Of a DNA stretch of 64,000 nt, positions 6,578 to 60,812 are shown in pieces. A program made the translations under genes and the position numbers. Source of the DNA: an uncultured Gemmatimonadales bacterium (GTDB lineage Bacteria > Gemmatimonadota > Gemmatimonadetes > Gemmatimonadales > JACORV01); contig CAWETG010000010.1 in NCBI GenBank assembly GCA_963812035.1, positions 323,534-387,533 on the forward strand, in the 5' to 3' direction. The notes beneath the pieces are model-generated. The model saw nothing but the letters and a program-made list of their open reading frames with translations. It was not told where the DNA came from and made no database searches. Each line of letters begins with the position of its first letter. Within the stretch, counting starts at the first letter, position 1.

Positions 6578-7617
6578 GCCGTGCCCTCGTGCCCCTGTGC
6601 GTCCGTGCGTCCGTGCGTCTGTGCGTCTGTGCGTCCGTGCGTCCGTGCGTCTTCCCAGAACAACACCCGCTCCACCGCGACCCGCACCCGATCGCCGACC
6701 CGGGCCGCCCGGAGCGGGGCCTGCACGTCGAACACCACACCCGCGCCGGCGTCGACCGTGAAGTACGCCTGAGCGCCGACGAACCGTCGCTCGGTGACCA
6801 CGCCCTCCAGCGGCGCGGGCCCGTCGGTCACGAAGCGCATGGCCTCCGGCCGCACCAGCGCCTTGGTGCCAGCCCGCCCTCCCACGCGATCCCCCGGCAG
6901 CGCGGCCGTGCGCCCCACGAAGCTCGCCACGAACGCATTGGCCGGATCGTCGTACAACTCGTCCGGCGTTCCGACCTGCTCCAGTCTCCCGAGGTGGAGC
7001 ACGGCGACCCGATCGCCGAGATCAAACGCCTCTTCCTGCTCGTGGGTCACGAACACCGTCGTAATGCCGACCTGGTGAATCGCGCGCCGCAGCTCGCGCC
7101 GGGTGCGTTCGCGCAACGCCGGGTCCAGGTTGGAGAGCGGTTCGTCCAGCAGGAGGACTCGCGGCTCGGGCGCCAGGGAGCGCGCCAGCGCGACGCGCTG
7201 CTGTTGTCCCCCGGAGAGCGCGGCCACCGGACGGCGCTCGTACCCCTCCAGATCGACCATCGCCAGCACTTCGCGCACTCGGCGAGCGGCGGCCTCGCCC
7301 TTGAGGCGCAGCCCGAAGGCGACGTTGGCCCCGACGTCGAGATGCGGGAAGAGCGCGTAGTGCTGGAAGACCATCCCAAAGCGCCGTGCCGCCGGAGCGA
7401 CGCGGGTCACCTCCTCGCCGCCGACCAGAATCGCGCCAGCGTCGGGGGTCTCGAACCCGGCAAGGAGGCGGAGCGTGGTCGTCTTCCCGCTCCCGCTCGG
7501 CCCCAGCAGCGCGAGGATCTCTCCACGGGCGACCTCGAGCGACAAGTCGTTCACGGCGACTGTCGCCTCGAAGGTCTTCCGCAGCCCGCGCAAACTGAGA
7601 TAGGGCTCGCCCATCAA
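6574..7617 (-). CDS. ABC transporter ATP-binding protein (FbpC/PotA-like) with repeat-encoded C-terminal tail
   Basis: Walker A GPSGSGKTT, signature LSGGQQQRVALAR, Walker B LLLDEP. The last ~26 aa (ARTHGRTDAQTHGRTDAQGHEGTA) are encoded by the 8-mer tandem repeat at 6581-6652. Confidence 0.9.
   Translation of the reverse strand: MMGEPYLSLRGLRKTFEATVAVNDLSLEVARGEILALLGPSGSGKTTTLRLLAGFETPDAGAILVGGEEVTRVAPAARRFGMVFQHYALFPHLDVGANVAFGLRLKGEAAARRVREVLAMVDLEGYERRPVAALSGGQQQRVALARSLAPEPRVLLLDEPLSNLDPALRERTRRELRRAIHQVGITTVFVTHEQEEAFDLGDRVAVLHLGRLEQVGTPDELYDDPANAFVASFVGRTAALPGDRVGGRAGTKALVRPEAMRFVTDGPAPLEGVVTERRFVGAQAYFTVDAGAGVVFDVQAPLRAARVGDRVRVAVERVLFWEDARTHGRTDAQTHGRTDAQGHEGTA
6581..6652. repeat. 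tandem octamer repeat (GTGCGTCC/GTGCCCCT), 9 units = 72 nt, inside CDS
   Basis: gtgccctc gtgcccct gtgcgtcc gtgcgtcc gtgcgtct gtgcgtct gtgcgtcc gtgcgtcc gtgcgtct. The length is a multiple of 3, so the frame of the ATPase tail is preserved. Confidence 0.9.
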
Positions 7618-7631
7618 CCCGTCACCTCCCC

Positions 7632-7768
7632 GGTGAAAGGTGAGAAGTGAGAGGCGAGAAGCTCTGGTGAGAGGTGAGAAGACGAAGTGAGAGGGTCTTT
7701 CCCTCTCACGCCTTTCGACCTCTCACTTCTCACCCATCCTTCTCACCTCTCACCTCTCACTTCTTACC
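7632..7768. repeat. imperfect hairpin built from tandem GTGAGAR heptamers (intra-operon, between SBP and ATPase genes)
   Basis: Left arm is ggtgaaaggtgagaagtgagaggcgagaag...gtgagaggg, loop tcttt, right arm ccctctcac...ctctcacctctcacttcttacc. The right arm overlaps the last codons and stop of the SBP gene. Confidence 0.85.
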
Positions 7769-8749
7769 TGTTCCTCGCACGTGCCGATCCCAATAATCCA
7801 TCCACGCCGCGCCGCGCGCCTCCACGCTGTCCCAGTTGACCGGCTCGACCCGCATCCGCGCCTCCACGGCGCGGGCCCACGGCGGTAGCGAATCGGCCGG
7901 CAGGTCGGTGCGTGCCGGAAGGCGAAACGCGTCGCGCGCCGCCACGATCTGCATCTCGGGCGTCAGCACCCAGCGCACGAACTCGCGCGCCAGCGCCGCG
8001 TGACGGGCCCCGCGGACCACCGCGATGGCGTCGTCGATCACCGGCGTGCCGCTGGAGGGGAACACGTAGCCGAACCTGCGGCCCTCGTGCTGCAGCAGCA
8101 GCATGTCCGGCAGGTCCCAGAGCGAGATCAGCCCCTCCCGCCGCTCGAGCATCGCGTGCAACAGCGCCGGATTCTGCACGTAGTCGCTGGTTTGCGCGTC
8201 GAGCCGGCGCAGCCACGCCCACCCGGCCGTCGTGTCGCCGGTGCGCGCCAAGCTGCGCATCATGATCATCTCGAAGATCGCACGCATCGTCCCGCTGGCG
8301 AGCGGATCGCGGATCAGGAGCTTGTCCTTCCACTGCGGCGCCAGCACGTCGTCCCAATCCGCCGGCGCCTCCGATTCCGGCACCGCGGCGCTGTTGAACT
8401 CGATCACGGCCGGCGTGCGATACACCGACAGGTAGAGCGGGCCACCGGGCGTGACCGGCTCGAGGAGCGAGTCGCGCGCCGCGCGCGCGAACAGCGGCGT
8501 CGGGCCCCCGAACCAGAGGTCCGCCTGCGGATTCGCCCGCTCGGAGCGCACGCGGTCGAGGGCCTCCTGCGACCCCATGTCGAGCCAGCGCACATCGACG
8601 CCGGGGTGCAGCGCCTCGAAGCGCCGCTCCACGAGCGACAGCAGCTCGCGGCCATGCGGAGAGTAGATGACGAGCGGCGTCCTGCCGCCCGACGAGCAGG
8701 CGCCCGCCACGACCGTCAGGCCTGCCAGCAGGGTGCGGCTACGGAACAT
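7757..8749 (-). CDS. ABC transporter periplasmic substrate-binding protein (family 1, iron(III)/thiamine-like), lipoprotein
   Basis: 330 aa. Signal/lipobox LLAGLTVVAGAC, then PLVIYSPHG...DLWFGGP, typical of FbpA/AfuA/TbpA-class binding proteins. In an operon with the ATPase and permease. Confidence 0.8.
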   Translation of the reverse strand: MFRSRTLLAGLTVVAGACSSGGRTPLVIYSPHGRELLSLVERRFEALHPGVDVRWLDMGSQEALDRVRSERANPQADLWFGGPTPLFARAARDSLLEPVTPGGPLYLSVYRTPAVIEFNSAAVPESEAPADWDDVLAPQWKDKLLIRDPLASGTMRAIFEMIMMRSLARTGDTTAGWAWLRRLDAQTSDYVQNPALLHAMLERREGLISLWDLPDMLLLQHEGRRFGYVFPSSGTPVIDDAIAVVRGARHAALAREFVRWVLTPEMQIVAARDAFRLPARTDLPADSLPPWARAVEARMRVEPVNWDSVEARGAAWMDYWDRHVRGTGKK

Positions 8750-26235: not shown

Positions 26236-27276
26236 GTGACCCGCCAGGCAGCCGCGAAGCGACGGCACGCCCTGTTCAAGGGCAAGGACTGGATCACCAC
26301 CGAGGAGTGGAGCGACCAGGAGCTTCTCACGCTGCTCGACGTCTCGGGCGACCTGAAGCGGCGCTTCAAGGAGCATCGGCCGCACCGCTGGCTTCCGGAC
26401 AAAACCATCTTCCTGATGTTCTTCGACAAGTCCACGCGGACCCGCAACTCGTTCGAGGCCGGGATCACGCAGCTCGGCGGGCACGGGCACTTCCTCACCG
26501 CCGACGCGATGCAGGTGTCGCACGGCGAGAGCCCCAAGGACACCGGCATCATCCTCTCGCGCTACGGCCACGCCATCGCGATCCGCCACGACCTGATCCC
26601 GGGGGAAGGCAACGCCTACATGCGCGAGGTCGCGAAGTGGGCGGACGTGCCCGTGATCAACATGCAGTGCGACGTGGATCACCCGTGCCAGACGCTGGCC
26701 GACCTCATGACCATCCGCGAGAAGCTGGGCTCGAACCTCGAGGGGAAGAAGCTCGCGGTGAGCTGGGCCTACGCGCCGAGCTACGCCAAGCCGCTGTCGG
26801 TGCCGCAAGGCCTGATTATGCTGATGCCGCGGTTCGGGATGGACGTGACGCTCGCCCACCCGCCGGAGTACTTCCTGATGCCGGAGACGCTCGAGGCGGC
26901 GCGCCGCAACGCGAAGCAGGCGGGCACGAAGTTCGAGGTCGTGGACGACATGGACGCGGCGTTCGCGGGCGCCGACGTGGTGATCCCGAAGAGCTGGGGG
27001 TGCCTGGAGACGATGGGAGCGAAGCCGGAGGAGTCGCTCCGCATCGCCAGGCAGTACACACGCTGGATCTGTGACGCTCCCCGGCTCGCGCGTGCCAGGC
27101 GCGGCGCGCTGTACATGCATCCGCTCCCGGCCGACCGGGGGAACGAGGTGACGGACGAGGTGATCGACGGGCCGCAGTCGGTGGTGTACGACGAGGCGGA
27201 GAACCGGCTCCACACGGCCAAGGCGATCATGGCGCTCACCATGGCCGACCAGCCGGTCGAGTACGAAGCGCCGTGA
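26236..27276 (+). CDS. ygeW: YgeW-type knotted carbamoyltransferase
   Basis: GTG 26236 (GGGAGGA upstream). STRTRNSFE, GNAYMREV, MQCDVDHPCQ, KPLSVPQG, RFGMDVTLAHP and MHPLPA match YgeW-specific blocks. Confidence 0.9.
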   Translation: MTRQAAAKRRHALFKGKDWITTEEWSDQELLTLLDVSGDLKRRFKEHRPHRWLPDKTIFLMFFDKSTRTRNSFEAGITQLGGHGHFLTADAMQVSHGESPKDTGIILSRYGHAIAIRHDLIPGEGNAYMREVAKWADVPVINMQCDVDHPCQTLADLMTIREKLGSNLEGKKLAVSWAYAPSYAKPLSVPQGLIMLMPRFGMDVTLAHPPEYFLMPETLEAARRNAKQAGTKFEVVDDMDAAFAGADVVIPKSWGCLETMGAKPEESLRIARQYTRWICDAPRLARARRGALYMHPLPADRGNEVTDEVIDGPQSVVYDEAENRLHTAKAIMALTMADQPVEYEAP

Positions 27277-28637
27277 TCATCCGGAACGCGCGGGTGGTGA
27301 CGTTCGATGGCGCCAACCGGGTGCTGGAGGGCGCGTCGGTGGAGATTGGTGCCGACGGCGCGATCAGGAGCGTGAAGCAGGGGCTAGGGACTAGGGGTGA
27401 GGGGCTAGGGGCCCTGACCCCTGACCCCCAGCCCCTAGCCCCCGCTTCTACCGTCCTCGACGCCGGCGGCCGTCTCCTCATGCCTGCCTTGATCAACTGC
27501 CACACGCATCTGTACAGCACTCTCGCCCGCGGGATCACGCTGCCGGGCCGCGCCCCCAGGAACTTCCCCGAGATTCTCAAGCAGCTGTGGTGGCGGCTCG
27601 ACCGGGCCCTCAACCCCGACGACGTTTACTACAGTGCCCTGGTTGGCCTGGTGGACGGCGCCAAGAACGGCGTCGGGACCCTGGTAGACCATCACTCGAG
27701 CCCCAACGCCTGCGCCGGGAGTCTTGATGTGATCGAGCGCGCCTTCCGTGAGGTGGGGCTCAGGGGCGTGCTCTGCTACGAGACCAGCGACCGCGACGGG
27801 CCAGCCAAGGCGCAGGCCGCGCTGGCGGAGAACATCCGCTTCATCGAGCGGACCGGCCGCGCGGGCGACGGCCTGATCGCCGCGAGCTTCGGGCTGCACG
27901 CGTCGTTCACCCTCTCGGACCGGACGCTGCGGCAGGCCGTCGAGGCCGAAGAGAGCCTCGGGGCAGGCTTCCACATCCACGTTGCCGAGGACCGATCCGA
28001 TCTCGACCATGCGCGGCGCCGCTTCAAGCAGACCGTGGTGGCGCGGCTCCGGGACCTGGGCGTGATGACCGACCGCACGCTCGCGGCCCACTGCATCCAC
28101 GTCACGTCCGGCGACGTCGCCGCGCTGGCCAGGCTCGGGGCCAACGTCGCGCACAATCCGCAGTCCAACAGCAACAACGCCGTGGGAATCGCGAAGCTGC
28201 TGGAGCTGGTGAAGGCGGGCGTGCTGGTCGGCCTCGGCTCCGACGGCTACTCTCCCCGGATGTGGGAGGAGTTCAAGACCGCCTTCCACCTCCAGAAGGT
28301 GCGTACCGGCGACCCGCGCGTGGGCTATGCGGAGGCCTACGCGGCGGCGTTCCTGAACAACCGCGCGATCGCGAAGAAGCTGTGGGGGATGGAGATCGGC
28401 CGCATCGAGGCCGGGGCGCGGGCGGACCTCATCCTGGTGGACTACTACCCGCCGACCCCGCTCGACGCGCACAACCTGTCCGGGCACCTGCTGTTCGGCA
28501 TCGCCAACGCGCCGATCGACACGCTGATCGTGGACGGCCGCGTGGTACTCAGGGACAAGCGCTGCGTCACCGTGGACGAAGCTGCGGTGGCCGAGCGCGC
28601 CACCCGACAAGCGAAGGCACTATGGCAACGGTTCTGA
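27273..28637 (+). CDS. ssnA: SsnA-family aminohydrolase
   Basis: GTG 27273 overlaps the ygeW stop (GTGA). PALINCHTHLYS, LWWRLDRAL, VDHHSSP, HIHVAED and GSDG blocks match SsnA. Contains the in-frame repeat hairpin at 27380-27443. Confidence 0.85.
   Translation: MIIRNARVVTFDGANRVLEGASVEIGADGAIRSVKQGLGTRGEGLGALTPDPQPLAPASTVLDAGGRLLMPALINCHTHLYSTLARGITLPGRAPRNFPEILKQLWWRLDRALNPDDVYYSALVGLVDGAKNGVGTLVDHHSSPNACAGSLDVIERAFREVGLRGVLCYETSDRDGPAKAQAALAENIRFIERTGRAGDGLIAASFGLHASFTLSDRTLRQAVEAEESLGAGFHIHVAEDRSDLDHARRRFKQTVVARLRDLGVMTDRTLAAHCIHVTSGDVAALARLGANVAHNPQSNSNNAVGIAKLLELVKAGVLVGLGSDGYSPRMWEEFKTAFHLQKVRTGDPRVGYAEAYAAAFLNNRAIAKKLWGMEIGRIEAGARADLILVDYYPPTPLDAHNLSGHLLFGIANAPIDTLIVDGRVVLRDKRCVTVDEAAVAERATRQAKALWQRF
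27380..27443. repeat. GGGGCTA-type inverted tandem-repeat hairpin inserted in frame in ssnA
   Basis: The G-arm ggggctagggactaggggtgaggggctagggg is followed directly by the C-arm ccctgacccctgacccccagcccctagcccc. It translates as GLGTRGEGLGALTPDPQPLAP. Confidence 0.85.
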
Positions 28638-48297: not shown

Positions 48298-50145
48298 ATG
48301 ACCACACCTACGATTGCCCCGCGGGTGACCGAACGGGAGGCGCGCGACGTTGCCGAGGCTGCGCGCGAGACCGAGTGGCACGCCCCCAGCTTCCTGGCCG
48401 AGCTGTTCGCCGGCCGCTTGCGGATGGGCCTGATTCATCCTCATCCCGAGCCGTCGGCCGAGGACGAGGCCCGCGCCGGCCCCTTCCTGCAGACCCTCGA
48501 GCAGTTCCTGCGGGAGAAGGTGGACGGCGATGCCATCGACCGGAACAGCGAAGTCCCGCCCGACGTGGTGCAGGGCCTGAAGGACATCGGCGCGTTCGGC
48601 ATCAAGATCCCGCGTGAATACGGAGGCCTCGGCCTCTCGCAGCTGCACTACACGAGGGCCATCGCGATGGTCTCGAGCGTCTGCGGCTCGACCGTCGCGC
48701 TGCTGTCGGCGCACCAGTCCATCGGGGTCCCGGGCCCGCTCAAGGTCTTCGGCACGCCGGAGCAGAAGAAAAAGTACCTCCCGCGCCTGGCCAAGGGTGC
48801 CATCTCCGCCTTCGCCCTGACGGAGCCGGGCGTCGGCTCCGATCCCGCGGCGATGGAGACGATGGCCGTGCCCACCGAGGACGGCCAGGCGTACATCCTC
48901 AACGGCGAGAAGCTGTGGATCACGAACGGCACCATCTGCGAGCTGATGGTCGTGATGGCGCGGACGCCGTCGGTGGTCGTGAAGGGCAAGGAGCGACGGC
49001 AGATCACGGCGTTCATCGTCGAGGCCGCCTGGCCGGGCGTCGAAGTGGTGCGCCGCTGCGACTTCATGGGACTCAAGGGCATCGAGAACGCGGTGCTGCG
49101 CTTCACCAACGTGCGCGTGCCGCGCGAGAACGTACTGTGGGGCGAGGGCAAGGGGCTCAAGCTCGCCCTGATCACGCTCAACACCGGGCGGCTGACGCTG
49201 CCGGCTTCGTCGGTCGCGGCGGCCAAGCGCTGCCTCGAGATCTCGCGCCAGTGGTCGAACCAGCGGGTGCAATGGGGCCAGCCGGTCGGCAAGCACGATG
49301 CCGTCGCGCAGATGATCGGCCGGATGGCCGCCGACACGTTTGCGCTCGAGGCGGTGTCCGAACTGTGCTCGACGCTGGCCGACAAGGGTGGCTACGACAT
49401 CCGGCTCGAGGCCGCGATCGCGAAGCTCTACAACTCGGAGCACGCGTGGCGGATCGTGGACGACACGGTGCAGATCCGCGGCGGGCGCGGCTACGAGACC
49501 GCGCAATCGCTCAAGGCGCGCGGAGAAATCCCGTGGCCGGTCGAGCGCATCATGCGCGACTTCCGCATCAACCTGATCTTCGAGGGCAGCTCGGAGATCA
49601 TGCACCTGTTCATCGCCCGCGAGGCGGTGGACCGGCACCTCAAGATCGCCGGGCCGCTCCTCGACCCGCGCACGCCGCTCGGGGCGAAGGCCGGTGCCCT
49701 GCTCAAGACGGCGGCCTTCTACGCGACCTGGTATCCGAGTCGCTACTTCGGCTGGGGCCGCTGGCCGCGCTTCGCCGGCTTCGGGCGCCTCGCCGGCCAC
49801 GTGCGCTTCGCCGAGCGGATGAGCCGCAAGCTGGCGCGCACCACCTTCCACGCCATGGTCCGCTTCGGTCCGCGGCTCGAGAAGCGGCAGTCGGTGCTGT
49901 TCCGGCTGGTCGACGTCGGGGCGGACCTGTTCGCCATGGCCGCCGCGTGCTCGCGAGCGGAGATGCTGCGCAAGAAGGGGCAACCGGAGGCTGTGGAGCT
50001 GGCGGATCTGTTCTGCCGTTATGCCCGGCGGCGCGTCCGGGAGACGTTCCGCACGGTGTTCGACAACGAAGACGCCCGGACCTACGCCCTGGCCCGGGCG
50101 GTGCTGGAGGGGAAGCACACCTGGCTTGAACAAGGCATGGTTTGA
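48298..50145 (+). CDS. acyl-CoA dehydrogenase family protein (long form with C-terminal extension)
   Basis: Track ORF 47797..50145 trimmed to ATG 48298. [22 protein letters not shown] and IFEGSSEI blocks. Confidence 0.9.
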
Positions 50146-50163: not shown

Positions 50164-50267
50164 CGGGGAGGTGAGAAGGTGATGCATGTGATGAGGTGAC
50201 GAGGTGAGTTGCGCGCACCATCATCACCTCCTCACATCATCACCTCCATCACTTCATCACCTCCCCG
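50164..50267. repeat. hairpin of tandem GGTGAKGA-type repeats between convergent genes (putative bidirectional terminator)
   Basis: cggggaggtgagaaggtgatgcatgtgatgaggtgacgaggtgag ... tcatcacctcctcacatcatcacctccatcacttcatcacctccccg. It has the same base (CGGGGAGGTGA...TCACCTCCCCG) as 51044-51166. Confidence 0.8.
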
Positions 50268-50275
50268 TCCGGTCA

Positions 50276-50713
50276 TCATCGCCCCCGGCCAAGTTCCAGC
50301 TTGATCGCCGTGAGCGAGTGGTTCACGTCCCGCAGGAACGACAGCAGCGACGCGACCAGCGAGATCATGCAGCAGGCGAAAAGCACCACGACCACGACCA
50401 CCGCCTCCCACCGAAGCACGGCGGCGAGGAACAGCGTGATCACGAGCGCGGCGGCGAAGAGCAGGCTCACCACCGCCAGGACGATCGCCCGGCGCATGTC
50501 GACGGCGCGCGCCGAGAGCACGGAAATCTGCGCCTCCACGCCCTCCATTTCCTGCTCCGTCGCCGTGTGCCGCACACCCGAAAGCAGTCGCGCGCGGTCG
50601 ATCAAGCGGCCGAGACGGTTGGTCATGGACAGGAGCAACAGCCCGATCCCCGAGATGAGAATCACGGGGCCCAGGGCGATCTGCAGAACCGGCGCAATCT
50701 CGCGAAGTGTCAT
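50276..50713 (-). CDS. DUF2721-like membrane protein
   Basis: 145 aa. Two TM pairs flank an amphipathic linker; the ...ISGIGLLLLSMTNRLGRLIDRAR... pattern is as in DUF2721. Confidence 0.6.
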   Translation of the reverse strand: MTLREIAPVLQIALGPVILISGIGLLLLSMTNRLGRLIDRARLLSGVRHTATEQEMEGVEAQISVLSARAVDMRRAIVLAVVSLLFAAALVITLFLAAVLRWEAVVVVVVLFACCMISLVASLLSFLRDVNHSLTAIKLELGRGR

Positions 50714-50796
50714 CGCTCAGCCCGTGCCCTCGATTCCCCGGTCACCGTAGCGTTCGCCGACGCGCGCGCGGTGCGCAGTCCGGCTCGATCGACACG

Positions 50797-50964
50797 TCAG
50801 AACTCGCGCTTCTTCATCTCTTCGAAGAAGCGCTTCGGATCCTCCGCATCCTCCGACTCGACCTGCAGGGTGTCGTCGTACTTGCGCCGCTTCACGGCCT
50901 TCTGGGTGACCTGCTTGGCGGCGTTCTTCTTGGCCAGCGCTTCCAGCTTCTTCAGGTCGATCAC
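50797..50964 (-). CDS. candidate 55-aa highly charged small protein
   Basis: Below the track size cutoff. GTG 50964 with GGAGG 7 nt upstream. My translation is VIDLKKLEALAKKNAAKQVTQKAVKRRKYDDTLQVESEDAEDPKRFFEEMKKREF. Confidence 0.35.
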   Translation of the reverse strand: MIDLKKLEALAKKNAAKQVTQKAVKRRKYDDTLQVESEDAEDPKRFFEEMKKREF

Positions 50965-51043
50965 GAGACCTCCATTCGGATACTGGAGGAAGATACTGCG
51001 AACTTCGTGCCGACGCAGAGGGGGCGCTGGGTTGGGGCCCTTA

Positions 51044-51166
51044 CGGGGAGGTGATGACGTGATGAAGGAGATGAGGTGATGATGTGAGACGGCGCATCAT
51101 CACTTCATCACATCATCACTTCATCACTTCATCACATCATCACTCCATCACTTCATCACCTCCCCG
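51044..51166. repeat. hairpin of tandem GTGATGA/CATCACTT repeats downstream of the M28 peptidase gene
   Basis: cggggaggtgatgacgtgatgaaggagatgaggtgatgatgtgag ... (atcatcacttcatcac)n ... cttcatcacctccccg. The right arm has roughly twice as many units as the left. Confidence 0.8.
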
Positions 51167-51173
51167 TGGTGCT

Positions 51174-52745
51174 TCAGAATCCCTGTCTCACCGGCACCGG
51201 CCCCTTGGGCATCATCTCGTCCCGGTTGGCCAGCTCGTACACGGTCCACGCCACCACAGTGGCGGCCTGCTTCAGGTCGCCGATCTCCAGCCGCTCGTAG
51301 GTATCCAGGTTCGAATGGTGGGTGCGAATGCCGTACTCGATCGGGTCCTGGATGTAGTTGAAGCCGGGGACGCCGGCCGCCACGAACGACTGGTGATCGG
51401 TACCGCCCGTATTGCCGTGCTTCACGACCACCAGGCCCAGGTCCTGGTAGGGCGTAAAGATCTGCTGGAAGATCGGGATCGCCAGGCTGTCCATCTGATC
51501 CCAGATCCCGCGCAGCTTGCCGGTCCCGTTATCCACGTTCAGGTACGCCGAGATCTGGCCCAACTCGGACGCGTGCTTCCTGACGTAGGCACGGGAGCCC
51601 AGGAGCCCCTCCTCTTCCCCGCTCCACAGCCCGATCCGCACGGTGCGCCGCATCGGCAGATTCAGCGCGCGGAGAATCCGGATCGCCTCCATCATCACCA
51701 CTGTGCCGGCGCCGTTGTCCGTCGCTCCGGTGCCGCCGTGCCAGCTGTCGAGGTGGCCGCCAACCATCACCACCTCGTTGGCCTTGTCGGTGCCCGGGAT
51801 CTCCGCCAGCGCGTTGTACGACATGAGATCGTCGCTGAGGAAGCGGTTCTGCACGTTCACTTCGAGCCGCACCGCACGGCCTGCCTTCACGTTGCGGTAC
51901 ATCGTGCCGTATTCCTCGTGCTGCACGAGCAGCGCGGGCAGCGGCTCGTAGTTCACGCTGTCGCGCGCCGGCCCCGCCTCCGGGCCGCCCTGCACCAACA
52001 GGATCCCGTAGGTCCAGTTCGACGGCTGCAGGATCACGGCCGGCTGCTGGGCCCGGAGCCAGGAGTTGATGCGCGCCGCGACGGCCCGCATCTGTTGCAT
52101 CCGCTCCCTTCGCTGCTCGGGCGTCAGGTTCGCCATCGGCCCCTGCGGCGCGCGGGGCGGCGCCGGGGGCGCCAGCAGCGAATCGACGCTGAACCGCCGC
52201 ACGATGGGTTCGAACTCCGGCGGGATCTCGCGGGGCGCGCCGCGCAGCACGCAGGCACCCTTGAGCTTGCCGGCGTACTGGGCCAGCTGCGTCGTGTCCT
52301 GCACATCCAGCAGCACCACCGGGCAGGTAATAGTGCCCCGGGTGCTGCCGCTCCAGGCCAGGGGCTGCGCGCTCAGCGGCTCGACGAACGGCTCGAGGAT
52401 CCGGCCCGCGTAGGTCACGCGCTCCCAGCCGCGGCCGAAGCTGGAATCCCACGGCTCGATGGCGACGTTTGCGAGCCCCCACTGCCGGAACAACTGGGTC
52501 ACCCACTCGTCGGCGCGGTGCATCCCGGTGGAGCCGGTGAGCCGGGGGCCGATGACGTCGGTGAGGTACTCGGCGAGCGAGTCGATGTGGGAGCGGTTGA
52601 GCCCCTCGTCGCGGATCCGTTGGGCGACCGCGAGGTCCAGGTGCTCCTGGACCGTGGCCGGGGCCGGCTGCTGTGCCGCGAGCGGGAGAGCCGCGGCGAC
52701 CGTCATCAGCGCCGCAACGGCGCTGGTACGAATCGCTAGGTGCAT
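51174..52745 (-). CDS. M28-family aminopeptidase with PA domain, secreted
   Basis: 523 aa with a signal peptide. HLDSWHGGTGATDNGAG, WSGEEEGLLGS and GGTDHQSF zinc-ligand blocks. Confidence 0.9.
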   Translation of the reverse strand: MHLAIRTSAVAALMTVAAALPLAAQQPAPATVQEHLDLAVAQRIRDEGLNRSHIDSLAEYLTDVIGPRLTGSTGMHRADEWVTQLFRQWGLANVAIEPWDSSFGRGWERVTYAGRILEPFVEPLSAQPLAWSGSTRGTITCPVVLLDVQDTTQLAQYAGKLKGACVLRGAPREIPPEFEPIVRRFSVDSLLAPPAPPRAPQGPMANLTPEQRRERMQQMRAVAARINSWLRAQQPAVILQPSNWTYGILLVQGGPEAGPARDSVNYEPLPALLVQHEEYGTMYRNVKAGRAVRLEVNVQNRFLSDDLMSYNALAEIPGTDKANEVVMVGGHLDSWHGGTGATDNGAGTVVMMEAIRILRALNLPMRRTVRIGLWSGEEEGLLGSRAYVRKHASELGQISAYLNVDNGTGKLRGIWDQMDSLAIPIFQQIFTPYQDLGLVVVKHGNTGGTDHQSFVAAGVPGFNYIQDPIEYGIRTHHSNLDTYERLEIGDLKQAATVVAWTVYELANRDEMMPKGPVPVRQGF

Positions 52746-54337: not shown

Positions 54338-54429
54338 GGCTCATAAGTTACACCAGTTGGGCGCCGTGGCACCCGGCGACCGCGTCCCGTAGGATTGGGA
54401 CTTCAACTCGAGTCCGGAGGACCGGAGTG

Positions 54430-56448
54430 ATGAACCGCCTCGCCTTCCTCATCCCTGCGCTCGCAGCGGCACTCGCCGTCGCGGCCCGCGCCCAGGTGAC
54501 CGACAGCTCCGCGTTCCGCCCGGTCCCGCTGCCCACGCCGAACGAATACCGCTCCGCCAGCGGAGCACCGGGCCACGCCTACTGGCAGAACCGCGCGGAC
54601 TACGCGATCGAGGCCGTGCTCGACACCGCGAAGAACGAGATCCGCGGCACCGGGCGCCTCACCTACCAGAACAACTCGCCCGACGCGCTGCGCTTCCTCT
54701 GGCTCCAGCTCGACCAGAACATCTTCGCCAGAAACAGCATCAACGCCCTCACCGCGCCGCCGCCGCTCATCTTCGGGGGGACGCCGTTCGACATGGCAAA
54801 CCACGGGTTCGTGGGCGGCCTGACGCTCACCCGCCTCGACGCCAACGGCCGGCCGCTCCCGCACTACATCTGGGACACGATGATGCGGGTGGACCTGCCG
54901 GAGCCGCTCGCGCCCGGCGGCGCCATCACGCTCGACATGGCGTGGTCGTTCACGATTCCCATCAACGGCGCCGCCCGCATGGGCCGCGACGGCTCGCTGT
55001 ACGAGATCGCCCAGTGGTACCCGCGGATGGCGGTGTACGACGACGTGCACGGGTGGAACACGCTCCCGTACATCGGCGCGGGAGAGTTCTACCTCGAGTA
55101 CGGCGACTTCGACGTGCACCTCACGGTGCCGAGCGGCTTCGTCGTGGCCTCGACCGGCACGCTCGAGAATCCCGACGAGGTGCTCACGGCCGGCGAACGC
55201 GACCGGCTCGCGCGGGCGCGGGCCGACACGGTGCCCCTGGCGATCATCACCGCGGGCGAGGCTGGCGACCCGGCGGCCACGCGGCCGGCGGGCGCCAACG
55301 GCTCGCTCACCTGGCACTTCCGCGCCTCCAACGTGCGCGACGTGGCGTGGGCCGCCGCGCCCAATTTCCGGTGGGACGCAGTGAGCTGGCGTGGCATCCT
55401 GATCCAGACGTACTACCGCCCCACGGCGCTGCTCTGGGCTGCGGAGGGGATCGTGATGGCCAAGCACGCCATCCGCCGCAACTCCGAGCAGTGGGCCATG
55501 TACACCTACCCGCAGGCCAGTACGGTCGAAGGGCCGATCGACGGGATGGAATATCCGATGATCACCTTCGTGCCGGCAGAGAAGAGCCGCGAGGGACTGT
55601 ACTGGGTGCTGATGCACGAATTCGGGCACGAGTGGTTCCCGATGGTGGTCGGCAGCGACGAGCGTCGGTACCCCTGGATGGACGAGGGCTTCAACACGTT
55701 CATCGATCTCTACGACGCCGCCGACTACTTCGCCGGCACGGCCTACGGCGACAGCGTCGCCGACATCCCACTGCACGCCTATGCGGCCAACGCCGTGCCG
55801 GGCGACGAGCAGCCGATCATCACCGCCCCCGTCGAGGTGCGGGACTTGTACTGGACGGCCTACCAGAAGCCGGCACTCATGCTCCGCCTGCTGCGTGAGG
55901 ATGTGCTGGGGCGCGACGGGTTCGACCCCGCCTTCCGCGAGTACATCCGGCGCTGGTCGTTCAAGCACCCGCAGCCGGCCGACTTCTTCCGCACCATCGA
56001 GAACGTGAGCGGACGCAACCTCGACTGGTTCTGGCGCGACTGGGTGTTCACGACGGCGCGGCTGGACCAGGCCGTGGATTCGGTGGTCGGTCCGGGAGGC
56101 GGCAGGGCGGGCACAGAGGCACGGGGGCACGGGGGCACGGTGCCCGCCGGTACGGTGCGCGGCGCGAACATGAGGGGTGAGGCGCCGGCGCCCGAGGCCG
56201 CACAGCCCGGGACGCGGATCTACCTCAGCAACCGGCGCGAGATGGTGATGCCCGCGGAGCTGAAGCTCAGCTACGACGACGGCACCAGCGAGGTGGTGGA
56301 GCTGCCGGTGGAGATGTGGAATCTGGGCAGCCGGTTCGTCTACACCGTCAACACCGGGACCAAACGGGTCGTCCGCGCGGAACTGGACCCCCGGCACATC
56401 CTCCCGGACACGGATCGCGGGAACAACGTGTGGCCGAGGGGGAGATGA
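54430..56448 (+). CDS. M1-family zinc metallopeptidase, secreted
   Basis: Track ORF 54268..56448 trimmed to ATG 54430 (GGAGG upstream; signal peptide MNRLAFLIPALAAALAVAARA). HEFGH-X18-E (WMDEG) gluzincin motif. Confidence 0.85.
   Translation: MNRLAFLIPALAAALAVAARAQVTDSSAFRPVPLPTPNEYRSASGAPGHAYWQNRADYAIEAVLDTAKNEIRGTGRLTYQNNSPDALRFLWLQLDQNIFARNSINALTAPPPLIFGGTPFDMANHGFVGGLTLTRLDANGRPLPHYIWDTMMRVDLPEPLAPGGAITLDMAWSFTIPINGAARMGRDGSLYEIAQWYPRMAVYDDVHGWNTLPYIGAGEFYLEYGDFDVHLTVPSGFVVASTGTLENPDEVLTAGERDRLARARADTVPLAIITAGEAGDPAATRPAGANGSLTWHFRASNVRDVAWAAAPNFRWDAVSWRGILIQTYYRPTALLWAAEGIVMAKHAIRRNSEQWAMYTYPQASTVEGPIDGMEYPMITFVPAEKSREGLYWVLMHEFGHEWFPMVVGSDERRYPWMDEGFNTFIDLYDAADYFAGTAYGDSVADIPLHAYAANAVPGDEQPIITAPVEVRDLYWTAYQKPALMLRLLREDVLGRDGFDPAFREYIRRWSFKHPQPADFFRTIENVSGRNLDWFWRDWVFTTARLDQAVDSVVGPGGGRAGTEARGHGGTVPAGTVRGANMRGEAPAPEAAQPGTRIYLSNRREMVMPAELKLSYDDGTSEVVELPVEMWNLGSRFVYTVNTGTKRVVRAELDPRHILPDTDRGNNVWPRGR
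56111..56146. repeat. GCACGGGG octamer tandem repeat inside the M1 peptidase CDS
   Basis: gcacagag gcacgggg gcacgggg gcacggtg cccg; encodes ...GTEARGHGGTVPAG... Confidence 0.8.
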
Positions 56449-56461
56449 AGAAGAGGGGTTT

Positions 56462-56527
56462 GGGGGCTAGGGGCTAGAAACGTGGCGCCGCATACGCCTA
56501 GCCCCTAGCCCCTAGCCCCTAGCCCCT
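56462..56527. repeat. GGGGCTA / TAGCCCC inverted tandem-repeat hairpin between convergent genes
   Basis: gggggctaggggctag - 20 nt loop - ctagcccctagcccctagcccctagcccct. Two units on the left and four on the right. Confidence 0.85.
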
Positions 56528-56531
56528 GTCT

Positions 56532-58292
56532 TTAATTGTTCGGCACCACCGGGAGGATCAAGTAGCTCGCGTGATCCCGGTCGTGAAACACCGCCTGCCG
56601 CGCCGGCTGCGACGTGACCGTCTGCCCCAGCGGTTCGCCGGTGTTGGGATTGGAGTCGTATTTCGGAAACGCGGTGGACGCCACTTCCACGCGGATCCTG
56701 TGACCCGGCCTGAACGTCTGGCAGGTGTTCCACACGTCGACGTCGTAGCCGTACACCCGGCCCGGTTCGATGGGCGACGGCCGGTCCATCCCGTCGCGGA
56801 ATCGGGCCCGCACCATCCCGTCGATCAGCCGCTCGACGAACCCGTTCGGCCACACGTCGAGCACCTTGACCATGAAATCGGTGTCGTGCGCGTCGGACGA
56901 CGCGAACAACCGCGCGCTGATCGGGCCGCACACCTCCAGGTCCTGCGTGAGCGAGTCGCTGGTGTAGACCAGGACGTCGTTGCGCTGCTCGACCTGGCGG
57001 TAGTCGTCGGGGCCGCCGATCTGCGCGAACGACGGCTCGGTGATGAAGGGGACGGGGTTCGACGGATCGTCGACGTACATGTCCGGCGGCTCCCGCGCAG
57101 GGACGGCGGTCGTCAACCTGCCGTCGCCCGCGCTCGTCGCCGCGTGGCCGCCGCTGTGCAGGTAGTACCGCGTCCATTGCGTGCGCGCCATCGGCCATTC
57201 GTTCTCACTCACCCAGGTGTTGGTGCCCATCACGAAGATCCGTACCGGCGGCTCCGGCATCACGCCGTTGTCGATCCCCTTCAGCCAGTAGTCGAACCAG
57301 CGGATCTGGTAGGCCGTCAGGTCGATCTGGCCGGTGGGCCCGAAGTCCACCGCCCCCAGCTTCGCGGTTGAATTGATCGCGTGCGGCCACGGCCCCATCA
57401 GCAGATGCTGGCTGGCGCGCACAGTCGCCGGTCCTCGCGTCGTCATGCCGATGTAGTTGAGGGGCGTGCCGACCTGCTCGTCGTCGTACCACCCCGAGAT
57501 GTGGAGCACCGGCACCTGGACCCGGTCGTACTTGTTCTGGTACCGCACCGGCTCCCACCAGTCGCTCAGCTGCGCGTGCTGGATCTCCTCGCGCCAGTAC
57601 GGGTTGGGTCGCCCGGCGGCCGAGTCCATGGTGAGCATCGGCAGGTGCCGCTGCACCGCCGACCAGTCCACCGCGTCCATGTTCTGCAGCAGGTGGCCGG
57701 CCGTGAAGTGATACCAGCTGATGTCCATCGGCAGGGGCAGCCCGGTCGGCCACTCGACGAACGGATCGGATGGCGTGACCATCGCGATCATCGCCGTGAG
57801 GTGCGGCGGCTGGAGCACCGCCGTGAACCACTGGATGCGGCCGTTATAGGAGCCGCCGATCGTGCCGACCTTCCCGGTGGACCAGGGTTGCGCCGCGCAC
57901 CACTCGACGGCGTCGTAGCCGTCGCGCCCGTCGTTGCGATACGGCACCCACTCGCCGTCCGAATCGCCGCGGCCACGGACGTCCATTGCCACGAAGACGT
58001 AGCCGCGCGAGGCCCAGTCCCGGCCGGCCCGGAGCGAGCCCGTCTTGGTGTAGGGCGTGCGCGAGAGCACCACGGGGAAGCGGCCAGCCGTGTCCGGCCT
58101 GTACACGTCGGCCGAGAGCTCGACGCCGTCCCGCATCTTCACCCGCTGGTTGAAGTCGATCCACACCTTGTAGGTCGGTTGCGATACTTGAGGCGCCGCG
58201 CCGGGCGCGGCAGCCGGCTGCTGTGCGGCGAGCGCAAGCGGCCCCAGCGCGACAAGAAGCGCAGCCGGAACCAACCAACTCCTGGCCGTCAT
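56532..58292 (-). CDS. CocE/NonD-family hydrolase (S15 X-Pro dipeptidyl-peptidase-like), secreted
   Basis: 586 aa with a signal peptide. RTPY, GGSYNG nucleophile elbow, and a C-terminal PepX_C-type beta-domain. Confidence 0.9.
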   Translation of the reverse strand: MTARSWLVPAALLVALGPLALAAQQPAAAPGAAPQVSQPTYKVWIDFNQRVKMRDGVELSADVYRPDTAGRFPVVLSRTPYTKTGSLRAGRDWASRGYVFVAMDVRGRGDSDGEWVPYRNDGRDGYDAVEWCAAQPWSTGKVGTIGGSYNGRIQWFTAVLQPPHLTAMIAMVTPSDPFVEWPTGLPLPMDISWYHFTAGHLLQNMDAVDWSAVQRHLPMLTMDSAAGRPNPYWREEIQHAQLSDWWEPVRYQNKYDRVQVPVLHISGWYDDEQVGTPLNYIGMTTRGPATVRASQHLLMGPWPHAINSTAKLGAVDFGPTGQIDLTAYQIRWFDYWLKGIDNGVMPEPPVRIFVMGTNTWVSENEWPMARTQWTRYYLHSGGHAATSAGDGRLTTAVPAREPPDMYVDDPSNPVPFITEPSFAQIGGPDDYRQVEQRNDVLVYTSDSLTQDLEVCGPISARLFASSDAHDTDFMVKVLDVWPNGFVERLIDGMVRARFRDGMDRPSPIEPGRVYGYDVDVWNTCQTFRPGHRIRVEVASTAFPKYDSNPNTGEPLGQTVTSQPARQAVFHDRDHASYLILPVVPNN

Positions 58293-59279: not shown

Positions 59280-60109
59280 GGTTCCCGCCCCTGGGGCACC
59301 TGCCCCACCGTGCCCCCGTGCGTCCGTGCCCCTGTGCCTCCTGTCTTCGTGCCTCTGTGCTCCTGTGCCCCCGTGCCCCCTGTCAGTATCGGTTCCAGCA
59401 CCCGCCACACGTTGTCTGCCACGATCCGGTCTCCGGCCGCGGTAGGATGAATGCCGTCGGCCTGATTGAGGGAATCCACGCCCCCCACGCCCTCGAGCAG
59501 GAACGGGATGAGCGCGAGATGCTCGCGCGCAGCGAGGTCGCGGTACAGCGCGCGAAACTGGGCGGCATAGCGCAGCCCAAGATTCGGCGCCGCTTCCATT
59601 CCGGCAAGCACGATCGTCACGCCCGGATCGGCCACGCGGGCGCGCCGCACGATGGCCTCGAGGTTGGCGCGGGTCGAGTCGAGGTCGAGTCCGCGCAGCA
59701 TGTCGTTGGCGCCCGTCTCCACCACCAGCACGGCGGGCCGGTCGTGCAGCACCCAGTCGAGCCTGCGCAACGCCCCGGCGCTCGTCTCCCCGCTCACGCC
59801 CGCATTGACGGACCGCCATGGCAGCTTCAAGCTGTCGAGCTTGCGCTGGACGACGGCAGGAAAGGCCTGGTCCGGATCGAGGCCGAGTCCAGCGGTAAGG
59901 CTGGTGCCGAGAAAGACCACAAGATGGGTGTAGGGTGTAGGGGGTAGGGTGTGTGCAACACCCGAGTCGGCGGCAGGCGTCACGCCGCGGGAGGCCTGTT
60001 CCACAGCGGCACCGGCGCTCAGGCCCCGGGCCTTGGATCCCGCGCCCCGCCCGCAGCCCCCGAGCAGGACAACCACAGCGCCCGCGGCTATCATTCGCCT
60101 CATGCTCAT
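59276..60109 (-). CDS. SGNH/GDSL arylesterase-lysophospholipase (TesA-like) with repeat-encoded tail
   Basis: FLGTSLTAG (GDS-like block I), NAGVSGETS, ETGANDM and ADGIHPT blocks. Divergent from a ybbA/ybbP-like pair, as in E. coli tesA. The C-terminal ~35 aa are encoded by an octamer repeat. Confidence 0.85.
   Translation of the reverse strand: MSMRRMIAAGAVVVLLGGCGRGAGSKARGLSAGAAVEQASRGVTPAADSGVAHTLPPTPYTHLVVFLGTSLTAGLGLDPDQAFPAVVQRKLDSLKLPWRSVNAGVSGETSAGALRRLDWVLHDRPAVLVVETGANDMLRGLDLDSTRANLEAIVRRARVADPGVTIVLAGMEAAPNLGLRYAAQFRALYRDLAAREHLALIPFLLEGVGGVDSLNQADGIHPTAAGDRIVADNVWRVLEPILTGGTGAQEHRGTKTGGTGARTHGGTVGQVPQGREP
59296..59384. repeat. GTGCCCCC/GTGCGTCC octamer tandem repeat in the 3' end of the SGNH hydrolase CDS
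   Basis: ...ccgtgccc ccgtgcgt ccgtgccc ctgtgcct cctgtctt cgtgcctc tgtgctcc tgtgcccc cgtgcccc ctgtc; translated (minus strand) as GGTGAQEHRGTKTGGTGARTHGGT. Confidence 0.8.
59926..59956. repeat. GGGTGTA-type G-tract repeat inside the SGNH hydrolase CDS
   Basis: gggtgtagggtgtagggggtagggtgtgtgc has four G-runs of at least 3. It encodes HTLPPTPYTH on the minus strand. Confidence 0.7.
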
Positions 60110-60812
60110 CGCTCACAACCTCACCAAGACTTATACGAGCGGCGGTCGCCCGCTCACGGTGCTCAAGGAAGTTACCCTCGAAGTCGAGGCCGGTGGATTC
60201 CTGGCGATCGTCGGCCCCTCGGGCTGCGGCAAGACGACGCTGCTGGGCCTCCTGGCGGGACTCGACACGCCCAGTGGCGGCACCGTGCTGCTCGGCGGCC
60301 AGGAGCTGTCCGCGCTCTCCGAGGATGGCCGCGCCAGGCTGCGGGGCGAGAAGGTGGGCTTCGTCTTCCAGACCTTCCAGCTCATCCCCACGCTCACGGC
60401 GCTCGAAAACGTGCAGGTGCCGTTGGAACTGGCGGGCGGACGCACGGGGGCACGGGGGCACGGGGGCACGAGCTACCGCGAGATCGGCGAGCGGGCACGG
60501 GAGCTGCTGGCGCGGGTTGGGCTGGAGGGGCGCGAGCACCACTACCCGGCGCAGCTCTCCGGTGGCGAGCAGCAGCGGGTCGCGATCGCCCGCGCCTTCG
60601 TCAACCGCCCCGCCATCCTGTTCGCCGACGAGCCGACCGGCAACCTCGATGCGGAAACGGGCGCGCGGATCATCGACTTGCTGGACGCCCTGAACCGTGA
60701 GTCGGGGGCCACCATCGTCCTGGCCACCCACGACGCGGACCTGGCCGCGCGGGCCAAGCGCACCCTGCACCTGCTCGACGGTGCCGTCGCGCAGGACAGC
60801 GCGCGCGGATGA
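60102..60812 (+). CDS. ybbA: ABC transporter ATP-binding protein (YbbA/LolD-like)
   Basis: Track ORF 59949..60812 trimmed to ATG 60102. GPSGCGKTT, LSGGEQQRVAIARA and LFADEPTGNLD. It carries an 8-codon repeat-encoded insertion. Confidence 0.9.
   Translation: MLIAHNLTKTYTSGGRPLTVLKEVTLEVEAGGFLAIVGPSGCGKTTLLGLLAGLDTPSGGTVLLGGQELSALSEDGRARLRGEKVGFVFQTFQLIPTLTALENVQVPLELAGGRTGARGHGGTSYREIGERARELLARVGLEGREHHYPAQLSGGEQQRVAIARAFVNRPAILFADEPTGNLDAETGARIIDLLDALNRESGATIVLATHDADLAARAKRTLHLLDGAVAQDSARG
60441..60470. repeat. GGGGCACG octamer x3 in frame inside the ABC ATPase
   Basis: cgcacggg ggcacggg ggcacggg ggcacg encodes RTGARGHGGT, between the Q-loop region (ENVQVPLELAG) and ...ERARELLARVGL. Confidence 0.85.

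Follow-up and report, generated by a model that had tools for sequence, protein, structure and literature searches.

The closest described relatives of the elements reported here are found in Xanthomonas and Geobacter. In Xanthomonas, the heptamer GGGAATC forms 70–75 pairs per genome 'in convergent orientation', and the accessible part of the same report also lists GGGGAYT/STRR of Nostoc (Rehm et al. 2015, PMC4692102). The Xanthomonas repeats share with our elements the dispersed tandem G-rich 7-mers, the G-rich arm that comes first and the variable number of units; they likewise prefer the first 50 bp past stop codons and are scarce in divergent gaps, according to that part of the report (PMC4692102). 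They differ in that a single unit type per genome is described there, whereas at least four families are present here, including 8-mers and units unable to provide a G-quadruplex (G4) motif (GTGATGA, GTGAGAG). Also, the Xanthomonas consensus GGGNATC with at least four G-tracts is not matched here, a G4 motif being found in 47 of 122 elements. G-quadruplexes were proposed and, in the accessible text, no gene was linked to the repeats, whereas the present elements are accompanied by PF05635 cassettes and have conserved non-repeat ends (PMC4692102). Geobacter metallireducens possesses sites made of four tandem octanucleotides (GTTGCTYN) or of five heptanucleotides each (Aklujkar et al. 2009, PMC2700814). 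Like our elements, they form opposite-strand pairs, are species-specific, number dozens of copies and lie between or within genes. They were read as binding sites for global regulators (IHF/HU), and the portion of the report consulted contains no stop-codon statistics, cross-species tracking or four-helix-bundle gene (PMC2700814). Hence, the repeat class is already published, and the sequence-only reading of this DNA, which knew of no described family with such a layout, is corrected by the Xanthomonas GGGAATC pairs (PMC4692102) and the G. metallireducens sites (PMC2700814).

A second group of relatives is formed by the intervening sequences (IVSs) of 23S rRNA. PF05635 is the family named for ORFs in these sequences and, in the part of the source consulted, is said to resemble Avd, the DGR accessory protein (PMC10053308). 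The 23S rRNA IVS of Coxiella burnetii has been called a selfish element and is excised by RNase III (Warrier et al. 2016, PMC4990558). ORF-bearing rRNA IVSs and the PF05635 cassettes described below both consist of a small PF05635 ORF inside long inverted, stem-forming arms. However, the place of IVSs is helix 25 or 45 of 23S rRNA, from which RNase III excises them (PMC4990558), whereas the cassettes follow the stops of protein genes and have arms of tandem 7/8-mers. In further contrast to ORF-bearing IVSs, most copies here, including all six in the analyzed stretch, lost the ORF or never had one. REP/REPIN-RAYT systems are alike at the population level, with many short extragenic palindromes that are family- and species-specific and one or a few gene-bearing 'masters' that the same palindromes flank (PMC3116915, PMC3333891), but the present elements come with a four-helix-bundle gene instead of a RAYT gene and have tandem arms of variable unit number. 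Intrinsic terminators are similar as stable GC-rich hairpins located a few nucleotides from the stop codon and placed bidirectionally between convergent genes; they differ in that the present elements lack a U-tract, have stems of 30–60 bp rather than 5–15 bp, occur as copies in families and are sometimes found within genes. As for MITEs, the GTGATGA family has conserved clamp-like ends, the dnaE and amidase sites show no target-site duplication, and the parent-like copies encode PF05635 and not a transposase.

Tandem-unit hairpins in the window

The window, the whole 64,000-nt stretch that was analyzed, corresponds to C10:323534-387533 of a 3.31-Mb assembly (70% G+C, 10 contigs, 100% complete), referred to below as G000. 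Five hairpins had been predicted in it from sequence alone, with a shared architecture of tandem-unit arms; they are located as predicted, their sequences are as described and TRF arrays recover the tandem arms. A sixth hairpin of the same build was found in addition to these five, at 27379-27443. The six elements are:

56462..56527, unstranded: GGGGCTA-family gene-less hairpin with 2–3 units, a spacer of 21 nt and then 4.4 units, lying where two convergent genes stop, one for an M1 peptidase, 54427-56448 (+), and one for an S15 X-Pro dipeptidyl-peptidase, 56532-58166 (-); RNA fold dG -56.5/-57.7 kcal/mol (+/- strand), z -5.65/-6.28
63376..63458, unstranded: GGGGCTA-family gene-less hairpin (the 63377 hairpin) flanked by the stops of two genes in convergent orientation, for a MacB/FtsX-like permease, 60809-63376 (+), and for a TM2-domain protein, 63472-63951 (-); dG -69.1 kcal/mol, z -7.4
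50164..50267, unstranded: GTGATGA-family (8-mer) gene-less hairpin with the clamp ACGGGGAGG...CCTCCCCGT; the convergent genes that stop on either side encode an acyl-CoA dehydrogenase, 48325-50145 (+), and a DUF2721 protein, 50276-50713 (-); dG -71.5 kcal/mol, z -8.5
51044..51167, unstranded: GTGATGA-family gene-less hairpin with about 5 versus 8 units, 8 nt past the stop of the gene 51174-52706 (-), with a small conserved ORF downstream of the hairpin; dG -74.7 kcal/mol, z -8.6
7632..7769, unstranded: long GTGAGAG-family (7-mer) hairpin with the conserved centre GGCGTGAGAGG-loop-CCTCTCACGCC, placed after the stop of the gene 7757-8749 (-); dG -94.2 kcal/mol, z -10.2
27379..27443, unstranded: nearly loopless GGGGCTA-family hairpin, translated in frame (QGLGTRGEGLGALTPDPQPLAP) within the amidohydrolase-like gene 27273-28637 (+); dG -59.9 kcal/mol, z -5.8

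Each of the six folds into one long imperfect hairpin (dG -56.5 to -94.2 kcal/mol, z -5.65 to -10.15) whose stability is not reached by any of 200 dinucleotide shuffles. Rfam covariance models gave no match at the gathering threshold over the whole window. The neighbors are ordinary housekeeping genes, and in all six copies the arms are present and the PF05635 ORF is absent. The left side of the 7632 hairpin adjoins a relic GTGATGA-type end (CACCTCCCCG); such nesting, with the older family outermost, is also seen in the related genome G005.

Genome-wide families and their placement

For the census, TRF arrays with a period of 7 or 8 were scored for an inverted partner at most 110 nt away, as a seed-diagonal multi-register detector was too noisy, and genes were called with a custom codon-usage caller (2784 genes, 90% coding in G000). 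The inverted-partner scores are bimodal, and the upper mode comprises 122 elements of period 7/8 in G000: 45 of the GTGATGA(N) family, 35 GGGGCTA, 21 GCAC-type, 4 GTGAGAG, 3 GGGTGTA-type and 14 others. GCAC-type units read GCACGGGG/GACGCACA, and further units of this genome are GGGGCTA, GTGATGAN and GTGAGAG. The 'other' class includes copies of a family of about 135–190 nt with GAGTTGCGAG arms, more of which were found in a further search. Family members have non-repeat sequence in common, namely the ends ACGGGGAGGTGATGA...TCATCACCTCCCCGT in GTGATGA copies and, in GTGAGAG copies, the centre seen at 7632. A search with strict unit patterns showed the families to be species-specific within the genus. 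The elements are therefore a few genome-wide families with conserved ends and not local growths that arose one by one. The earlier proposal that they were generated and resized by replication slippage thus holds in part: resizing fits the differences in unit number between arms and species, but generation on the spot is at odds with genome-wide families and conserved ends. Unequal unit numbers in the two arms, also proposed earlier, are confirmed in 71 of 101 elements genome-wide, the mode being 4 units per arm. Pairing was compared from the outer to the inner stem to distinguish growth at the tip from clamped ends; it is flat at 0.8–0.87, with no gradient.

A genome-wide scan for enrichment at stop codons, suggested by the sequence-only reading, gave a clear answer. 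Although 90% of the genome is coding, 112 of the 122 elements are intergenic. Among convergent gaps, 42 of 296 (14%) contain one, compared with 60 of 2178 among co-directional and 10 of 300 among divergent gaps. The median distance from stop codon to element is 5.5 nt, with 86% at 25 nt or less (n=144 stop sides), and that on the start side is 36 nt. The claim that the hairpins follow stop codons is therefore borne out genome-wide, but not for 27379 and about nine others, which lie in frame within genes.

All 122 elements have a purine/G-rich 5' half and none has the C-rich arm first; the 3' half is pyrimidine-rich in 118, the four exceptions having a long 5' arm that extends beyond the midpoint. 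Since a palindrome is identical on either strand, this purine-first polarity is a real property of the elements. It is also found in 24 of 26 such elements from 0.89 Mb of foreign contigs, low-GC ones included. Non-repeat hairpins with a stem of at least 12 bp are purine-first in 36 versus 7 cases between genes and in 35 versus 46 cases inside genes, a control that is not fully independent, because some of these hairpins may be other repeat families. A possible reason for the polarity is that within the transcription bubble the RNA:DNA hybrid is weakest with a pyrimidine-rich 3' arm, much as with a U-tract.

PF05635 cassettes

To our knowledge, PF05635 proteins are helical bundles of about 120 aa with no known nuclease or transposase activity, and this abundant family of 'rRNA intervening sequence' proteins has no known role outside diversity-generating retroelements. 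G000 has exactly four PF05635 genes, each preceded by a G-rich arm and followed by a C-rich arm:

C10:692855-693169: PF05635 cassette with GGGGCTA arms
C1:1191881-1192180: PF05635 cassette with GACGCACA arms, adjoining a dnaE gene that bears two GCAC-type insertions
C1:812214-812525: PF05635 cassette with GAGTTGCGAG arms
C1:128721-129026: PF05635 cassette with GTGATGA arms and the GTGATGA-family clamp

The arms of these four cassettes are those of the four major families, with one cassette per family. Inverted-flank scores are 28, 31, 11 and 21 for the cassettes; the maximum among 400 random segments with identical geometry is 15, and 4.8% of these reach 12. Families for which G000 lacks a cassette are rare (GTGAGAG, 4 copies; GGGTGTA-type, 3). 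The spacers of gene-less GTGATGA copies often start like the inner left flank of the cassette (...GATGACGGGTGC... versus ...GATGGCGTGGGTGC...), which suggests that such copies are internal-deletion derivatives. Hence, the hairpins of the window are probably gene-less members of palindromic families, each major family having one PF05635 cassette elsewhere in the genome, and they resemble a selfish, IVS-like cassette that lacks its gene and is located behind stop codons.

The association extends beyond G000. In a comparison of 13 genomes of the genus (G000-G012, with G007 71% complete), PF05635 is present in 12, with 1–7 genes each that are mostly enclosed by arms; most of the 27 further loci in the other genus genomes are enclosed by inverted arms. 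G006 has no PF05635 match and some elements nonetheless, and G007 has gene-less GGGGCTA copies, yet no GGGGCTA cassette among its three PF05635 genes in an assembly that is 71% complete. The protein tree for the genus splits into four clades, each of which corresponds to one unit superfamily. Of these, the GTGA clade comprises proteins from cassettes with GTGATGA 8-mers (G000), GTGATGA 7-mers (G009) and GTGAGAG (G003, G007, G010, G011, G012), and the G-heptamer clade is divided into GGGGCTA (G000, G004), GGTTGTR (G007, G010) and GGGTGTA (G001, G002 / G003, G012) sub-clades; the remaining two clades are of the GCAC-octamer and GAGTTGCGAG types. Across the phylum, 100 of the 151 genomes that are at least 90% complete contain PF05635, with 1–13 copies, compared with only 1 of 14 control genomes. 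Of 27 loci sampled phylum-wide, 24 lie inside inverted tandem arrays of very diverse 7-mers. The copies examined, with or without a gene, are located after the stops of protein genes or within protein genes and not in helix 25/45 of 23S rRNA. A link between PF05635 and tandem 7/8-mer repeats was not found in the searchable part of the literature.

Orthologous sites across the genus

In the gap between the M1 and S15 peptidase genes, where the 56462 hairpin lies, all genus members that have this gap carry a hairpin of tandem units, and the units differ: GGGGCTA in G000 and G004, GGTGGTA in G007, GGTGGT in G010, GGGTGTA in G012 and GGTTGTA in G003. Metagenomic orthologues of the gap (55–84% protein identity) mostly contain a tandem-unit hairpin as well, with still other units. 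A wider comparison of G000 with 381 kb of G007 covered 23 G000 elements with both flanks, and most of these sites are occupied in both genomes. GTGATGA (8-mer) sites of G000 are GTGAGAG (7-mer) sites in G007 in six of six cases, including 50164, whereas GGGGCTA sites are either kept with a recognizably identical spacer or replaced by GGTGGTA/GGTTGTA. For instance, the orthologue of 63377 has GGGGCTA/GGGGTTA arms with other unit numbers and another spacer, the 27379 site carries a GGTGGT/GGTTGTA hairpin, and the 51044 site holds a different remnant, a CTGCAAC half-arm. No truly empty orthologous intergenic site was found in G007, three candidates being half-arms or other remnants or unalignable, and clean empty sites were found solely within dnaE. 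At the GTGATGA/GTGAGAG sites, in the M1/S15 gap and in the amidase gene described below, the unit at gene-less orthologous sites is that of the genome's own cassette. Consistent with this, GGGTGTA is the dominant unit in G012, the cassette of which has GGGTGTA arms, and this genome contains about 210 GGGTGTN dimers.

Copies inside genes

About ten elements lie in frame within genes: twice in dnaE, in an amidase gene, in an E2 linker and in the amidohydrolase-like gene at 27379. The amidase gene has a hairpin at the same codon in all 10 genus genomes, with arms that vary by genome (GGGGCTA; GGGGTTT/CCCCAAA; GGGTGTA/TACACCC; GGTTGTA) and a spacer that looks related. G001 has GGGTGTC/GACACCC where its close relative G002 has GGGTGTA/TACACCC, a compensating change in all units of both arms. 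At one exact nucleotide position of the dnaE-like gene, 6 genomes have no insertion and the other 7 have a member of one of three families, namely GACGCACA in G000 and G011, GGGCACGG in G001 and G008, and the GTTGCCAG type in G004, G006 and G007. In the tree of this gene, G001, which has the insertion, groups with G002 and G009, which lack it, and the sister genomes of G000 carry a different family. The empty dnaE site, GGAGCGCG|CCGTCC, is a quasi-palindrome that is hit near its centre; neither here nor at the amidase sites was a target-site duplication seen. Within translated genes, selection cannot be preserving a terminator, so the complementarity of the arms is more likely a side effect of the way in which they arise or are converted, and the in-gene copies make it more likely that the process acts on DNA.

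Transcript ends and G-quadruplexes

The U-tracts that the sequence-only reading had described as lacking are indeed absent: the T fraction in the 13 nt past the C-rich arm is 0.21–0.34, compared with 0.15 genome-wide, with weak A-enrichment upstream and weak T-enrichment downstream of the elements. A canonical hairpin plus T-tract is found in 9 of 103 element-bearing gaps of at least 40 nt (5 of 42 convergent and 4 of 61 co-directional); in convergent gaps this amounts to 12% of element-bearing versus 18% of element-free gaps, a difference that says little about mutual exclusion of the two. In 60 co-directional gaps, folding shows no bias towards the sense strand, which is the more stable one in 29 and the less stable one in 31 (p=0.56); the G-U excess is slight (187 versus 146). 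Nor was any asymmetry of arm length relative to gene direction apparent, as spare C-rich units serving as a U-tract or rut substitute would give (25 versus 34; p=0.79). Judged from sequence, the placement fits a bidirectional transcript-end structure, and a function in termination or at 3' ends is plausible.

G-quadruplexes were considered as the common denominator of the elements and rejected, the motif being present in 47 of the 122 (39%), all of the GGGGCTA or GCACGGGG type, and in no element of the GTGATGA or GTGAGAG family. The fit of GGGGCTA arms to a G4 consensus, reported earlier, holds for the type, but at 56462 four G-runs are found in the minus-strand arm only. Competition between G4 and hairpin, once put forward as a principle of regulation, cannot be common to the elements, because the motif occurs in 39% only.

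Origin and persistence of the elements

We hypothesize that the resident cassette is the source from which arms arise, are renewed or are converted, and that this happens at the DNA level. A likely route would be that the PF05635 protein acts on the repeats in a sequence-specific manner, in combination with slippage, template switching or short-tract conversion. Such a DNA-level process would keep the arms complementary without selection on RNA. Copies would then persist mainly a few bases past stop codons, above all between convergent genes, presumably because a hairpin of -60 to -95 kcal/mol is least harmful there, and in this position the hairpin would probably also act as a bidirectional transcript-end structure, be it a barrier, a U-tract-poor terminator or an RNase III site. 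We tentatively go one step further and propose that PF05635 paralogues may be unit-specific 'writers' or 'keepers' of 7/8-mer arrays, each recognizing its own unit and driving the formation, renewal and genome-wide homogenization of the arms, and that they operate without a reverse transcriptase or a known transposase, a suggestion that for now we hold to be possible rather than probable.

An unlikely, but serious, alternative is that the hairpin families are primary and homogenize themselves, possibly by RecA-dependent ectopic conversion, the PF05635 genes being passengers that home into one hairpin per family or are simply retained there. Arrays of 4–5 units, or 28–40 bp, are expected to be long enough for homologous pairing, which suits this explanation. 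The amidase spacer looks conserved while the arms change, which fits conversion of the arms better than replacement of the whole element, and the nested elements with older families outside (G005, 7632) point the same way. Co-variation of protein and unit would be expected equally from vertical co-inheritance and genome-wide homogenization. On the other hand, passenger genes would not be expected to comprise exactly one distinct PF05635 paralogue per major family, with cassette-less families being rare, the enclosure of 24 of 27 PF05635 genes in the phylum within arms would need a separate reason, and conversion alone makes no new copies at empty sites such as that filled in dnaE of G001.

We regard as still less probable the original proposal that these are host terminators or mRNA stabilizers grown in place by slippage, with lengths made variable in effect by register shifts or by competition between G4 and hairpin. 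The stop-adjacent position and the enrichment in convergent gaps are as this would predict, as are unit numbers that vary between arms and species. The hairpins in most metagenomic orthologues of the M1/S15 gap are also in its favor, one of which (L062) is flanked by A6 and T7 tracts like a bidirectional intrinsic terminator, and so are the purine-first polarity of ordinary intergenic hairpins (36 versus 7) and the scarcity of canonical T-tract terminators (18% of element-free convergent gaps). However, growth in place leaves unexplained why 35–45 loci share one unit and conserved non-repeat ends, why orthologous sites have genome-specific units and why PF05635 cassettes exist. About ten in-frame copies, in positions where a terminator would be harmful, keep their arm complementarity, and the restriction of G4 motifs to 47 of 122 elements and the lack of a sense-strand folding bias also speak against it.

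Mobilization of REP/REPIN- or MITE-like elements by a conventional transposase (RAYT/Y1 or another IS-encoded enzyme) seems very improbable. The elements resemble REPs as intergenic palindromes with conserved ends past stops and between convergent genes, and GTAG occurs inside some units (GGTGGTAG, GGGTGTAG), but the gene-bearing copies carry PF05635, the arms are variable tandem arrays unlike those of REPs and no target-site duplications were seen. RAYT/Y1 mobilization was rejected, as Y1_Tnp (PF01797) gave no match in the 100%-complete G000 genome and was detected in control genomes. An origin like that of telomerase or retron products, considered for the 'fused telomere' look of a G-arm followed by a C-arm, was rejected as well, there being no gene matching RVT_1 and thus no reverse transcriptase in the same 100%-complete genome. 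The cassette reading favored here has its own drawback, in that no enzyme able to move DNA was linked to the elements.

Neisseria DNA uptake words (DUS/USS) exist as 'dialects' and are paired in terminators. That our units could by analogy be binding or uptake words of a genome-specific DNA-binding factor, spread by molecular drive with the hairpin being secondary, would agree with the genome-specific 'dialects' at orthologous sites and the pairing at terminator-like positions, but is hardly credible given three or four unrelated unit types within one genome and units that are nearly confined to inverted tandem arrays, whose ends are defined, and are not scattered as single words.

Concluding remarks

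Inverted tandem-heptamer repeats have been noted in Xanthomonas, cyanobacteria and Geobacter since the 1990s–2000s, and we know of no origin or function given for them. The genus studied here amounts to a clean natural experiment, with four paralogues, four repeat families and units that switch with the protein lineage, and the gene-less copies at the same chromosomal sites, even within dnaE and the amidase gene, track this switch. A vague class of repeats thereby becomes a testable protein-repeat system. For annotation, the hairpins mark about 1 in 7 convergent gene ends in this genome, put peptide insertions into essential genes and disrupt both assembly and gene calling in high-GC genomes from metagenomes. 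If PF05635 proteins do write or keep the arrays, gene and arms together would constitute a new kind of mobile or self-propagating element, which would explain the orphan heptamer repeats of many phyla and also the origin of the ORF-bearing rRNA intervening sequences.

Genes associated with the hairpin elements

A gene caller with the codon usage of the window's own genome, G000, as its training set missed all four genes of the PF05635 family (23S-rRNA-IVS/Avd-like four-helix bundle) in that genome (C10:692855, C1:1191881, C1:812214 and C1:128721), which hints that their composition is atypical. One of them, with GACGCACA arms, is directly adjoined by a dnaE-like polymerase gene (C1:1188472-1191753, outside the window), and this gene neighbourhood is also found in G001, G002 and G008, three other genomes of the genus. 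The dnaE-like gene itself carries two in-frame hairpin insertions in G000:

C1:1189178-1189262, GACGCACA
C1:1191452-1191526, GGGCACAG

Within the window, a small ORF on the minus strand (~50760-50965), encoding a highly charged product ending in ...KKLEALAKKNAAKQVTQKAVKRRKYDDTLQVESEDAEDPKRFFEEMKKREF*, is located between the gene-less GTGATGA-family hairpins at 50164 and 51044. It was overlooked by the gene caller and is conserved in G007, with ~90% nucleotide identity.

Single-arm arrays and further families

Four GCAC-type octamer arrays of the window consist of a single arm without an inverted partner close by, and are located within coding sequences or at their tails:

6579-6651, GTGCGTCC, ATPase tail
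56109-56140, GGGCACGG, M1 peptidase
59308-59384, CCGTGCCC, GDSL lipase C-terminus
60442-60470, GCACGGGG, ABC ATPase domain

These arrays may be half-elements, the other arm of which has been lost. Immediately upstream of the GDSL-lipase gene start lies an orphan GGGTGTA array (59926-59952, x3.9). No PF05635 cassette, that is, a PF05635 gene enclosed by the arms of one element family, was found for the GGGTGTA family in the G000 genome, and the family looks like a relic.

A further G000 family, 135-190 nt in length and with arms GTTGCGAGACGCCGAGTTGCGAGTGG..., often has a canonical terminator hairpin at its centre, AAGGCCCCGCC-loop-GGCGGGGCCTTTT. Its copies include:

C1:455121, C1:603070, C1:607261, C1:824715
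C7:249747, C9:132766, C10:175272, C10:192509 and others

Arm order and nesting

Throughout the G000 genome and on the foreign contigs, the pyrimidine/C-rich arm is always located 3' of the purine/G-rich arm, and the apparent exceptions involve only near-neutral units, such as AGCCATC/GCTATCA. At loci of G005, for instance C1:3193-3278, the elements are nested, with GTGATGA arms outside and arrays of a second, GTCTGCAGAC-like unit inside. This nesting suggests that newer arrays originate in the centre of older hairpins.
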